Shown one piece after another: positions 3,570-40,568 of a DNA stretch of 41,225 nt. The translations under genes and the position numbers were made by a program. This stretch comes from Octopus sinensis (taxonomy: Eukaryota): positions 1-41,225 of the forward strand of contig NW_021831674.1 of assembly GCF_006345805.1 (NCBI RefSeq). Reading direction: 5' to 3'. The notes beneath the pieces were generated by a model that searched no databases, was not told the origin of the DNA, and saw only the letters and a list, made by a program, of their open reading frames with translations. Position 1 is the first letter of the stretch. Every line of letters starts with the position of its first letter.

Positions 3570-3609
3570 CACACTTTAAAAGAATTGCGGTCGAAACAGC
3601 TGTAGTGTG
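3570..3609 (+). ncRNA. decayed minimal hammerhead-like motif (PLE terminus remnant)
   Basis: cacac..GAAA-CAGCTG-TA-gtgtg: 5-bp stem I, palindromic ACAGCTGT, GUA triplet; the CUGANGA box is eroded. Confidence 0.4.
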
Positions 3610-4139
3610 ATCAATTATTCAAATAAAAACATATTAACTATTCATGTACTTTCTGAATATATTTTTGAGTATTGCCTTGGAAGTTATTTACTTTATGTTA
3701 CAGTTTATTAATGCAAAATATAACAGAAACTAAGCAAATATTATATGATATAACATAATAGAATATAATAATGATGATAATAATAATGATGATAATAATA
3801 ATAATAATATATATAATCTATATATATATAATATATATATATGATATAAATATATATATATATATGCACACATATCTATCTATCTATCTATCTATATCTA
3901 TCTATCTATCTATCTATCTATCTATCTATCTATATCTATATATATATATATATATTTACACACACATATATACATACATACATTCTACATACACATGCTA
4001 AATAGGTAGTAAAGTAAATACATACGTATTTTCACACACGCGCGCACACACACACTCACACACACATTTTTACTCTCCATCTTCGTGTCAACAATGTCTT
4101 TCGTTTAATTTTCCACCATTACCATCACCCCACGGCAAC

Positions 4140-7100
4140 CATTACAACGATGCCGATCACCACCACCACTATCACCACCACCACCACCACCACCACCACC
4201 ACCACCACCACCACCACCACCACCATCACCACCATCAACACCACCACGAGTCATTTTCTCCCTTTCTCCTTTTTATACACCCGTCGATTCATCACATCTA
4301 CCTGCCACTAACACTTTAATCTTTTTTCTATATACACCCACCAGTCAATTTCGCTTAATTTTATCTAAAATGCCTGCCAATTCTAGACTCTCGTAATATG
4401 AGATGGCAGAATTAAAAACAAATTAAATAAACAGAAAAAAATAAAATAAGTAAAAAAAAATTATCTACTAATAAATAATGAAAATAATGATTGAACAAAT
4501 AAATAAATATAAAAATCAATATTTCAACGAAATAAAATCAACACAAAAATATATAAAGAAAAATTCGGAAAAGAAAATAAAACTAAATAGAAGTGCCAAG
4601 GAAGAAAATACTGGTTCCTGAGGCGAAACCTTTGCAAATATAATTTGTATAAAGCAGACGACAACGACAGCCGAAACGAAATGAGATGTAATATAGTAAT
4701 AAAACCTTTTCGGGGAACATCAGCAGCCAAACTAGATTATTATTATTATTATTATTACTATTATTATTATTATTATTATTATTATTATTATATTATTATA
4801 TTATTATTATTATTATTATTATATTATTATATTATTAATAAAAAAAAAAAAAAAAAAATAATAATAATAATAATAATAATAATAATAATAATAATAATAA
4901 TAATAATAATAATAATAATAATAATGATAATAATAATAATAATAATAATAATGATGATGATAACGATGATGATAATAACCACTACCACATCACTCTGCCC
5001 CCACTGATAGTAACATAACCATCATCATCATCATCTTCATTATCGTCATTACCATCATCGTCATCATTGTGTCAGCATCATCATCGTCGTTGTCGATATG
5101 AATATCATCATCATTATCCTCACGATCACCATCCTTATCATCATCAACATCATCATCATCATCATCATCATCATCATCATCATCATCATCATCATCATCA
5201 TCATCAACACCATCAACACCATCGTCATCACCGTCAACATTATCATCGTCAGCATCAACATCATTATCGTCACCATCATCATCATCGTCGTCGTCATCAT
5301 CATCATCATCATTATCATCATCAACAACAACAACAACAATAACAACAATATTACCAGCACCACAATCATCATCATTGCCAGCAGCAACACCGCAACCACA
5401 ACCACCACCACCGCCAACAACAACAACAACAACAACAACTGCACCACCACCACCACCAACACCACCATCACCGTCATCCTTATCGTCGTCATCCTCATCA
5501 TAATAATCATCATCATCATCATCATCAACATCATCATAATCATCATTATCGTACTCGTCATCGTTGTCACAACCAAATTTCGTATTAGTAAATAATTACT
5601 TTTGCCTAGTTTTCACCCCTCTCCCCGCTATTACATTGTTAAATGCCGTTGCAGTTGATTATTGAACTCAGTATCTCTACCATTGAATTGTTTTAATCAG
5701 TGCCGTGTTTATCACGTTTTTTTAAAAAGCGTCTTTACAAGTTTTTTTTATTATTTCGTGTCATCCCTTTTTTTCAAGGTAGAGAAATTGGGTGGAAATA
5801 ATAATAATGATGATAATAATAATAATAATAATAATAATAATAATAATAATAATAATAATAATAATAATAATGATATAATAATAATAATAATAATGATAAT
5901 AATAATAATAATAATAATAATAATAATAATAATAATAATAATGATGATGATGATGTGATGATGATGATAACAACAATTTAAAAACAGCAACTAAAATTAT
6001 ATACAATACAATATACACATTATATATAGACAGACATGCATATATATATATGTATATATACATGTATATATATACATATATGCATTTATATATATACACA
6101 TATTTGTATATATGTATATAATAAATATATACATATATATATAAACTTACATACAAACTTTTATATATATATATATAAACATTCATACATTTATATATAT
6201 ATATATATAATATATATATATATATATAGAATATATATATATATATATATATTTGTATGTATGTATGTATATATATGTATTATATATATACACACATATA
6301 CATACATACATTTATATATATATATATATATATATAGTATATATATATATATATATATATATATACATGTATGTATATTTGTATGTATGCATGTATGTAT
6401 GTATTTGAATGCATGTTCTGTGTATGTTTATTTAAGGAGAATCATTTATACTGTTATTTGCTACCTAATCAAAGATTATTATCACTTTCGTTATTATCTT
6501 CATTTCGCGCCGTTATCGATCGCATGCTACGTCATATAACCATGATCTTCTTCCACCACAGCCAACAACTCCGCCCCTCTTCCTGCTCATCATCATCAGC
6601 ATCCTCATCATCAACATAATCAGCACAAACAGCAGCAGCGCCAGTAACGGCATAGTTGTCACCATCATCATCATCATCGTCATCGTCATCATCATCATCG
6701 TCGTCGTCGTCGTCGTCGTCGTCGCCATCGTCATCGTCATCATCGTAATCATCATCATTATCATCATCATCATTTTCGTGGTCGTCCCCCATCATCACAT
6801 CGTCATTATTATCATCATCATCTTCCTCCTCCACTCTTCCTAATCATCATTATCATCATTATTATCATCTTCATGTTTGTCTTTTGTCACCATCATTATT
6901 AGAATTATCATCATCATCATCATCAGCTGCAGCAGCAACAGTAAGTGCCAACCACAGCCAGCTCTTCCCTTTCCGTCCCCTTCTGTCTCTTCTGTTTCCC
7001 CCTCTTCTTCCCACTTATCACCATCCACATCATCACTATCAACATTATCGTCATCATCTTCGTCGTGTCGTCGCCATTGCCTTCGCGACCGTCACCATCA

Positions 7101-8030
7101 TTCACACCAGTAACGGCCTTATCACCGCGGTTGATAGCATCGCGGTAGTTATTGGTAACAACAACAGTAACTTCTCTTCCCCTCCTCTTCCTCCTCATCA
7201 TCATCATGATCATGATCATGATCATCCACTACCGCCGCCGCCATCACCACCACCACCACCACCACCACCACCACCATCACCACCACCAACAGCACCACCA
7301 GCACCCGCACCAGTACCACCACCACCACCACCACCACCTACTACTACTACTACTACTACTACTACTACTACTACTACTACTACTACTACTACTACTGGAG
7401 AGACATCATTATTTCAATAATCACGGCCTCCATCTTTCATCGCATTCGTGTAATCAACACCATCATCGTTAAGATAATAATCTTCATCAACATCATCACT
7501 TATTACTATTATTGCTACTACTACTACTATTGTTATTGTTATTGTTGTTAGCGTCGTCGTTTATGTTTTTTAATCAGTGCTATCAGCGCAATACAATAAT
7601 CACTACACTTATAATTGTCATTCTCATCGTATTCACCACAAACTTCTGACTCCACCACCACCACCACCACCACCACCACCACCACCACCAACTCCTCCTC
7701 CTCCTCCTCCTCCTCGTCCTCCTTTTCCTCCTCTTCCTCCTCATCATCTTCATCGTCATCCTCGTCGTCATCATCATCAGCATCATCATCATCATCTTCA
7801 TCGTGATCAGCATCGTGATCATCATCATCATCTTCATCGTGATCATTATTGTCATCATCAACTCCATCGTCATCGTCATCCGCCTCCTCCCCCTCCTCCT
7901 CCTCCTCCTCCTCCTCATCATCATCATCATCATCATCATCATCATCATCATCATCATCATTGGCCTCGTTGCTTTCGTCATCCACTTCACCACAATCCAG
8001 TCCTCATCATCGTCAACACCATCACCTTGT
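4140..8030. repeat. compound microsatellite/low-complexity field: (CAC)n, (TAA)n, (CAT)n, (TA)n, (CCT)n, (TAC)n
   Basis: Direct reading; source of the poly-H/I/M/D/P ORFs. Confidence 0.95.
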
Positions 8031-8227
8031 TCAATTCAACTGCACTGTCATCCGGTGAGGAAGGAAGGAAACAGTGAGTTAATGATATCTCTAACTCTTT
8101 CTTACTTATTTAATTTTTTACTTTTTGTTTTGCATGATTGTTAGTGTGACATGTTTTATTAAAACAAAATCATCATCGCACATAAGTAGAAATATGAATT
8201 CGTCTATACTATACGTAAGTTTCAACA

Positions 8228-8376
8228 GGCGTGGTGGCCATTGCTTCCAAACTACATGTTTCCGGATTCAGCTCCACTGTGTGACACCTTGGGGCCAGCC
8301 TCTCCTATTATAGCCTAGGGCCGACCAAAACTTTGTGAGTAAATTTCGTAGACAGACACTGAAAGAAACATGTCGA
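8228..8376 (+). mobile_element. SINE family B head (OR2/CORE-SINE-like)
   Basis: Decayed tRNA-like head, then caccttggggccag..tatagcctagggccgaccaaa..ttgtgagt..gtagacagacactgaaagaa. Confidence 0.7.
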
Positions 8377-39260: not shown

Positions 39261-39767
39261 CTAGCAGTATCGCCCGGCGTTGCTCGGGTTTGTAAGGGAA
39301 ATAACTATATAAGCATTTTTAGAGAGTTACTTCCCTTTTAGATGCCAATTCGGGCTTTCTTAGCCATTTTGTTGGTGTCTTCAAGCCATGAAGTCGTTGT
39401 TCTAAAAGAACGCTGGTCTCCTTGACAACGCTTTACGACGTTGATTTCCTTACACTCCCTTCCCCACAGCTTCACGAGGGAGGGAGAAGGGGGAGAAGCA
39501 AACAGGTGCAGGGTGACCATGGACGCCAACTCCGCCGCCATCGACACACGAAAAAGTATGCATTAAAATGGAATAAAAAATGATGTTAATTATTTTTAAA
39601 ATCGTAGACTCATCGTAGACGCGCGCTAATACTCAGACAGGCTTGATATGAATCACGACTATAAGATACCCGAATTTGGTTAAACTGCACCGCAAAATGT
39701 GGGAGTAGTTAGGAATCTAAATCGAAGGGGACAGACACTCACACAACTACAGTTTTATATATATAGA
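39261..39767 (-). mobile_element. non-autonomous Helitron
   Basis: Minus strand A|TCTATATATATAAAA..cccgagcaacgccggg hairpin..CTAG|T: canonical TC start, subterminal GC hairpin, CTAG end, A/T target and no TSD. Confidence 0.9.
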
Positions 39768-39958
39768 TATGCAAAAAACGATCAATACCAAGAAACAAGA
39801 AAATATTAGTCACAAACCATTTCCAGTAGGGGTAGAGACAACAAAACCCCGAGTGGGGAGGGTGAACGTGAAATCCAACTAACCCTGAATCAACTTACAG
39901 TGTATGTCAAGTGCTCGTCTCACCTCCGTACATTCATCCTACGGGTACATATTTTGTG

Positions 39959-40337
39959 CGTGGAGGCGCAATGGCCCAGTGGTTAGGGCAGCGGACTCGC
40001 GGTCATAGGATCGCGGTTTCGATTCCCAGACCGGGCGTTGTGAGTGTTTATTGAGCGAAAACACCTAAAAAGCTCCACGAGGCTCCGGTAGGGGCTGGTT
40101 GATCCCTGCTGTACTCTTTCACCACAACTTTCTCTCACTCTTCTTTCCTGTTTCTGTTGTACCTGAATTTCAAGGGGCGGCCTTGTCACTCTCTGTGTCA
40201 CTGATATCCCCGAGAACTACGTTAAGGGTGCACGTGTCTGTGGAGTGCTCAGCCACTTACACGTTAATTTCACGAGCAGGCTGTCCGTTGATTCGGATCA
40301 ACCGGACCCTCATCGTCGTAACCGACGGATTGCTTCC
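39959..40337 (+). mobile_element. young tRNA-derived SINE with 11-bp TSD
   Basis: A box TGGCCCAGTGG, B box GTTTCGATTCC, CpG-rich; TSD catattttgtg at 39948-39958 and 40338-40348. Confidence 0.9.
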
Positions 40338-40490
40338 CATATTTTGTGTAAGACGCTTTCTCTATCTATATTCATTCAATACATACCGAAGGACTGAAGG
40401 AAATTTCTGCCGTGCTGCCATTCAACACAAGCAAAAGAACATAAGCTCGGAGTGAAATAACGAGAGGATCTAACGAACGGCTTATTTAAA

Positions 40491-40568
40491 GAATCCCCTG
40501 AAGAGGCACATTTTATACCTTGGATGAATGATAAACATTACACAGTGTCGAAACACTTGTAATGATTT
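40491..40568 (+). ncRNA. hammerhead-like motif with intact core
   Basis: gaauccc-CUGAAGA-ggcac(35-nt loop)guguc-GAAA-CA(CU)UG-UA-augauuu; the two core-proximal stem I pairs are mismatched. Confidence 0.55.

Follow-up and report, generated by a model that had tools for sequence, protein, structure and literature searches.

The 41,225-base window analysed here, which is an entire contig (NW_021831674.1) of the 2.72-Gb Octopus sinensis assembly, contains hammerhead-ribozyme-like motifs dispersed along its length. Most of these motifs are best explained as the hammerhead folds of the 3′ pseudo-long terminal repeats (pseudo-LTRs) of several families of Penelope-like elements (PLEs), left as short, decayed, 5′-truncated copies beside (TA)n tracts and likely inert. 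We give this explanation as a whole, including its mechanism, a probability of roughly 0.88. The association is real and largely of a known kind, namely the fossil ends of hammerhead-bearing PLEs from at least two clades. Three core changes, A6-to-U in family A, U4-to-C in family B and an A3-U8 pair in family C, are family-wide and are not the result of decay. The family letters A to H are labels of the present analysis, and hammerhead positions are numbered by the standard convention.

A first-pass annotation had counted eight minimal hammerhead-like motifs, and we recovered all eight in place, with position C3 at 3575+, 10095+, 11053−, 29501+, 33089+, 33504− and 40498+; in the 29805− copy the box is lost by truncation. 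To count matches we used a descriptor of a type I hammerhead, fixed only after the families had been seen, with a stem I of at least 3 bp, a 7-base box that must keep a Watson-Crick 3-8 pair of whatever kind and may contain one further mismatch at the most, a stem II opening with G-C, and GAAAC(N0-6)GUH. The window contains three matches, whereas 200 local dinucleotide shuffles gave a mean of 0.02 and a maximum of 1. A 1-Mb genome sample, drawn systematically as 100 evenly spaced 10-kb stretches, contains 16 matches against 0-1 per shuffle in 10 shuffles, so the comparison with shuffled sequence that the annotation had proposed came out in favour of the motifs. Its description of their architecture stood only in part. 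The CUGANGA-like box is canonical in two of the eight motifs (11053 and 40498) and not in the other six; the fold is not minimal in three (10962, 29805 and 40491), whose families have a stem II of 39-77 nt; and what had been described as near-palindromic forms of stem III are really decayed copies of the family palindromes ACCGGT, ACACGTGT and ACAATTGT. Each of the eight is altered in some way: its core is changed, a stem or the palindrome is broken, or the copy is truncated. A looser scan added two motifs that are inverted relative to each other and have canonical boxes (27711− and 27811+); they are absent from the annotation. The 1-Mb sample gives only 4 canonical or 3-8-paired matches, compared with 16 when one further core change is allowed, so that in a genome of this sort most hammerhead-like motifs escape descriptors that insist on CUGANGA.

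Genome searches placed seven of the eight noted sites in six repeat families. Candidates, counted as first-look lower bounds and not as copy numbers, amount to at least 2,559 for family A (29496, 33472), at least 1,785 for family C (10091), at least 806 for family B (33085), at least 656 for family F (10962) and at least 247 for family G (40491). A joint pattern for families A and B has 27,117 exact matches in the genome and the reversed pattern has 0; the corresponding numbers are 626 and 0 for family C, and 239 and 6 for a pattern dominated by family D (29805). Considering these reversed-pattern controls together with the shuffles, the idea that the motifs are chance matches in repeat-rich, AT-rich DNA is close to negligible, and it is already refuted at all sites but 3570. 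It draws some support from Rfam, in which no hammerhead match appeared among the 150 of 180 matches listed or in three local scans, the Rfam scan matches being repeat-driven microRNA only, and from the site at 3570, which has no clear family. The decayed motif at 3570-3609 (+) has a box of the U3-A8 type with G5 lost, a 5-bp stem I and the palindrome ACAGCTGT; a single weak relative was found genome-wide, and two further pattern matches were a relative of family G and an unrelated site. It is plausibly an old relic.

The proposal that the motifs are ribozyme-bearing PLE termini next to (TA)n is borne out by what lies on either side of them. PLE frames are tied to families A, C, D and H, and a (TA)4 tract occurs within 200 nt downstream of nine of nine window probe hits, compared with 14 of 32 sample hits and about 15% of random stretches. 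Reverse transcriptase (RT)/GIY-YIG frames of the Neptune type precede families A and C, which lie on their 3′ side. In the case of family A, the repeat runs 5′ through a C-rich untranslated region (UTR) into a GIY-YIG frame (L010, L011, L022 and L180), and 29 of 30 A-type endonuclease loci have an intact U6 motif 736-1072 nt downstream, the thirtieth also being U6. At L353 and L354, two identical motifs on the same strand, about 4.5 kb apart, flank an RT-linker-GIY-YIG frame; L355 has the 3′ motif only, and L356 has no single long frame. Relatives of family C show the same motif a few hundred bases past the end of a complete RT-linker-GIY-YIG frame. [quoted passage not shown] Families A and C share these features and microsatellite targets with the PLEs described for the Neptune clade (Arkhipova 2006, via PMC8557442), from which they differ in their core variants, membership being read from motifs and not from a tree. 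Further hammerhead families occur outside the window (L105, L110, L116, L204; L106, L177, L189); several have U3-A8 cores and the ACCGGT palindrome and lie behind Neptune-type frames of 780-850 amino acids (aa), and they also include an abundant canonical family with 9 probe hits per Mb.

Families D (L360) and H (L130) lie behind a Hydra-type endonuclease, which is 38% identical between the two; in the H relative L130 the motif is found about 600 nt behind it. Both endonucleases, compared by eye, have a C-terminal CxxC and CxH around conserved E and N and no CCHH; that of family D passes the Pfam GIY-YIG cut-off, and that of family H gives no match. Judged from the endonuclease sequence, D and H match the Hydra clade, and F and G probably belong there as well. 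Three family F loci have an RT fragment next to them, but it does not run on into an F end and was not counted as a link. The likeness to the Hydra-clade PLEs presented by Craig et al. 2021 (PMC8557442) extends to an endonuclease without CCHH, the C-terminal CxxC and CxH, (TA)n targets, a stem III of 7-8 nt and, often, a U.U pair opening stem II. However, stem II is about 12-25 nt long in the motifs of file S2 of that study and 39-77 nt here. Families D, F, G and H are thus not minimal hammerheads, given a stem II of that length and an 8-base stem III. The metazoan PLE hammerheads of minimal type I reported by Cervera and de la Pena 2014 (PMC4209133) resemble the present motifs in their short stem I, a bulged base before stem II, G10.1-C11.1, a palindromic stem III of the ACGU type, GUH, their location in pseudo-LTRs and mostly solitary copies in thousands.

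Within the window, the pseudo-LTR of family C forms a 3′ end at 9930-10200 (+), whose motif (10091-10123) has the A3-U8 pair and a palindrome decayed to ACCAGT. It belongs with a broken Neptune-type PLE RT at 8486-9930 (+), which retains an ADKG motif but lacks the other parts of the frame, among them the endonuclease, ahead of the 3′ end; by tblastn this RT matches a full-length genomic open reading frame (ORF) with Pfam RVT_1 at E 2e-138. The family F 3′ end at 10811-11077 (−) contains a motif at 10962-11056 with a canonical box, a 70-nt stem II that opens with a U.U mismatch, and a broken copy of the family palindrome ACACGTGT. Family H is present as an inverted partial copy at 27580-27722 (−), with a canonical box in its motif (27634-27715), and as a 3′ end at 27797-28100 (+), whose motif at 27805-27888 is the most intact in the window and has a canonical box, a 6-bp stem I and a long stem II. 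The two H copies (27580-28100) are inverted and divergent, about 75 nt apart, with (TA)n on both sides, and inverted pairs of this sort are described as typical of PLE insertions (PMC8557442). Together the H pair makes a long hairpin; its score in Rfam, as a plant microRNA precursor, lies far under the cut-off. In two other cases, unrelated PLE tails meet tail to tail on a shared (TA)n tract. In the first (29429-29835), a family A 3′ end at 29429-29621 (+), with its motif at 29498-29531, has the A6-to-U core and a stem I down to 2 bp, and it faces a family D 3′ end at 29677-29835 (−), which is cut within stem II, lacks the box as well as stem I's 5′ strand, and retains the palindrome ACGATCGT. 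In the second (32992-33577), a family B 3′ end at 32992-33214 (+) carries a motif at 33086-33118 with the U4-to-C core and a stem I left with 2 bp by one lost A, and a family A 3′ end at 33388-33577 (−) carries a motif at 33473-33508 with the A6-to-U core that is otherwise intact. Finally, an old family G 3′ end at 40450-40690 (+) contains a motif at 40491-40568 with a canonical box, a shortened long stem II, a broken closing pair of stem I and a palindrome decayed from ACAATTGT. Despite the age of family G, window positions 40400-40680 match another contig (G000:C3616:173-451) with 99% identity over 281 bases, which probably reflects a duplicated or allelic contig.

The window is rich in microsatellites, with 49 (TA)8+ tracts at about twice the density of the 1-Mb sample. 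The 3′ ends of copies are fixed at (TA)n, while their 5′ ends vary. Copies would insert into (TA)n with the 3′ end first, and most would therefore keep only a 150-300 nt tail. Counting motif-covering probe hits only, the sample contains 32 per Mb, which extrapolates to roughly 90,000 motifs genome-wide; thousands of such motifs per genome have been reported in other animals (PMC4209133). With tens of thousands of copies, some must be transcribed, and two family H motifs look nearly intact; both points could speak for an action on the host through the cutting of intronic RNA or the release of small or circular RNAs, which the annotation had suggested. We consider this very unlikely, and found no support for it in the window, where no host exon was recognised among the ORFs of at least 100 aa, four of which were scanned against Pfam. 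The copies in the window are decayed and stand singly, and the two H motifs lie on opposite strands. Matching palindromes on the same strand occur only in 29501 and 33089, where the cores are altered and each stem I has 2 bp. None of the window copies has an intact partner on its strand, which makes cutting of host RNA improbable. Moreover, a minimal motif on its own did not cleave in vitro (PMC4209133), and the A6-to-U and U4-to-C changes account for 82 of the first 100 listed A/B motifs.

Other copies of the families restore what is damaged in the window, including the palindromes ACCGGT, ACACGTGT and ACAATTGT, stem I of families A, B and G, and the box of family D. Stem III is an exact palindrome in nine of ten natural representatives, and the tenth, by inspection, pairs with itself through two G.U pairs. 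Stems I and II pair in the natural representatives; stem I is broken in the representative of family G, and other G copies pair there. The 3-8 pair is C-G, U-A or A-U depending on the family. In family C, two pairs of stem I are changed on both sides and are compensatory; one of 500 shuffles attained the covariation score of the family, and pairing is far worse when the partners are slid. The covariation in stems I and II that the annotation had named as a check was thus seen in stem I of family C but not within family A.

The core changes were counted by hand for families A and B in the first 100 of the 27,117 matches, with positions 4, 6 and 7 left free in the pattern. All 53 tetraloop motifs, which represent family A, carry A6-to-U, while position 7 takes U in 26, A in 14, C in 9 and G in 4 of them. 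All 47 triloop motifs, which represent family B, retain A6, and 29 have C4 and 18 are canonical. When family A copies were recruited by their 3′ flank only, 74 were obtained, five of which were dropped because the motif was not covered, and U6 was present in 68 of the remaining 69; most of these loci had initially been selected because they resembled the window copy or one young subfamily. All 12 of the family A copies taken from the window and the sample have U6 too. A very young subfamily exists within A: of 150 matches listed, 52 are 100% identical across 141 aa (a hand count that includes the source copy). An identical U6 motif occurs in sequencing-run contigs under two other organism labels. 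At one A locus (L180:6279-6314), in three of four runs the contig depth has a several-fold peak at the hammerhead, as if this were the part most common to the subfamilies, and a lower second peak is found at 6198-6233. Of the first 100 among the 626 family C matches, 93 carry A3 together with U8 (hand count), whereas related Neptune-type families carry U3-A8. D, F, G and H have the canonical core at the family level, as does a minority of B, whereas A, C and most of B do not. A register of family A with the box shifted by three bases was rejected by inspection, as each of the four bases would then occur at position 4 and both stem I and stem II would fail. An origin of the canonical B copies by CpG decay was rejected as well, since 16 of 45 triloop motifs bearing C7 are canonical at position 4 and other CpG sites of the motif change at about 1/46 (hand count).

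Natural core variants are known, among them U3-A8, U4C, A6C and U10.1-U11.1 (Perreault et al. 2011, PMC3088659). While the U4C and U3-A8 changes and the U.U mismatch seen here therefore have precedents, A6C and U4C are rare phage or viroid cases in that work, and A6U and A3-U8 are not mentioned in its variants section; here they are fixed in high-copy retrotransposon families. Among the 56 PLE motifs in Fig. S3 of PMC4209133, none has U6, C4 or A3, which the descriptor used there could not find, and U3-A8 is the sole 3-8 variant among those it reports. A6U and A3-U8 were not found in the literature that we searched, which excludes the largest variant survey (2017) and may for that reason miss them. 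Their novelty is uncertain.

On the basis of the literature, two motifs in a read-through transcript would pair through their palindromic stem III to form a dimer, which could cut after the GUH triplet, perhaps aided by the element's own protein. Motifs of this kind were inactive as monomers and weakly active as dimers in the assays of PMC4209133, and one PLE hammerhead is reported to cleave only with its protein, cleavage not being required for insertion of the same PLE in vitro (PMC11167929). In lineage A, U6 would damp or abolish cutting and favour a rod-like monomer, with stems, palindrome and the remaining core kept. The lowest-energy fold predicted for family A is such a rod-like monomer, in which U6 pairs with A15.1 in a competing helix; for dimers, the calculation covered cofolding energies only. 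In a mutational scan of a type III construct, the mutants of the CUGA turn other than the C3G/G8C swap showed low activity (PMC9901934). U6 thus probably weakens or abolishes cutting in family A, so that fast self-cleavage is probably not needed for the spread of this lineage.

Several observations weigh against the explanation by decayed and likely inert PLE ends. The covariation in family C spans about three subfamilies, and its counts lean on relatedness; covariation was not seen within family A, where the loop of stem II is as conserved as the stems, and the conservation of family A may result from recent descent or protein binding instead of the hammerhead fold. The window has 9 probe hits against 1.3 expected by its length and 2.9 by its (TA)n tracts, an excess that is inflated by probes built from the window's own families. 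Family F is tied to a Hydra-type endonuclease in one of 20 loci, and all clade assignments rely on motif inspection and not on a tree. No PLE frame was found upstream of families B and G or of site 3570 in a flank of 1.5 kb per locus, as would be expected if these were non-autonomous, retrozyme-like derivatives copied by PLE enzymes. This option has a precedent in a 2026 preprint, which derives animal retrozymes from PLE pseudo-LTRs (bioRxiv 10.64898/2026.07.22.740005). However, as far as they are described in that preprint and in PMC7229834, non-LTR retrozymes share with our motifs a type I hammerhead related to PLE pseudo-LTRs but consist of tandem non-coding units with hammerheads, whereas the window copies are truncated ends of coding elements. 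The window contains no tandem array of motifs or of non-coding units, copies run 5′ into PLE 3′ UTRs and frames, the families that could be traced lead to coding frames, and family B resembles family A in both motif and 3′ flank. Considering also the variable 5′ and fixed 3′ ends described above, we regard the retrozyme-like units of the annotation as unlikely even for B, G and 3570.

A stronger contender, which we place somewhat short of even odds, accepts the same elements but holds that the U6, C4 and A3-U8 cores still work in vivo, rescued by dimers and by the element's own protein, with their rate tuned. Natural U4C and A6C variants keep low activity in PMC3088659, and U6 need not be dead for this reason. 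In addition, among the 69 flank-recruited A copies, N7 is U in 34, C in 20, G in 8 and A in 7, and H17 is A in 47 and U in 19, so that these two positions are variable and the rest of the core is almost invariant, as under selection for a hammerhead. The A3-U8 combination retains a 3-8 pair in the 93 family C motifs counted above, and the protein-dependent cleavage of one PLE hammerhead (PMC11167929) offers a precedent. On the other hand, the mutational and variant data contained in PMC9901934 and PMC3088659 predict low activity when position 4 or position 6 is changed or when the 3-8 pair is swapped to anything but G-C, and the competing helix that uses U6 in the predicted fold of family A points the same way. 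Most of the window motifs remain best described as decayed PLE ends.

Several other repeats were observed in the window, by eye except where a score is given. Fragments resembling the 3′ ends of long interspersed nuclear elements (LINEs) lie at 1020-2020 (−), 2160-2900 and 16400-16870 (+); a weak zf-RVT match at 1427-1771 (−), below the cut-off and the sole Pfam score among the four scanned frames, represents a LINE zinc-finger piece. A short repeat at about 3310-3534 has inverted ends and resembles a miniature inverted-repeat transposable element, its right end having at least 913 genome candidates. About five tandem 43-base units at 31181-31385 resemble the head of a short interspersed nuclear element. 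A repeat of about 500 bases bounded by (AAT)n occurs at 37850-38275 and 38410-38960 (+) and at 20793-21300 (−), two of the copies being in tandem. At 22540-23300, a stretch of about 390 bases is present twice in succession within (TA)n and (TG)n, which is either a local duplication or an assembly artefact.

The role of the hammerhead in endonuclease-bearing PLEs has been called unclear (PMC8557442). In this genome, the commonest and apparently still spreading lineage has fixed a core change that is predicted to weaken or abolish cutting. We tentatively suggest, as a possibility that we ourselves hold to be doubtful, that the most successful PLE lineage here spreads with a hammerhead that lacks A6 and keeps its stems, palindrome and remaining core, that sister families have independently fixed U4-to-C and A3-U8, and that the fold would now be a slow or non-cutting element for dimerisation and protein binding, cleavage being dispensable or damped in PLE retrotransposition. 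A young family of very high copy number, in which full-length elements bear a core predicted to be crippled, together with close relatives that have the canonical core, provides matched natural pairs on whether cleavage matters, and the fixed core variants, above all A6-to-U, make the question of what PLE hammerheads do a testable one.

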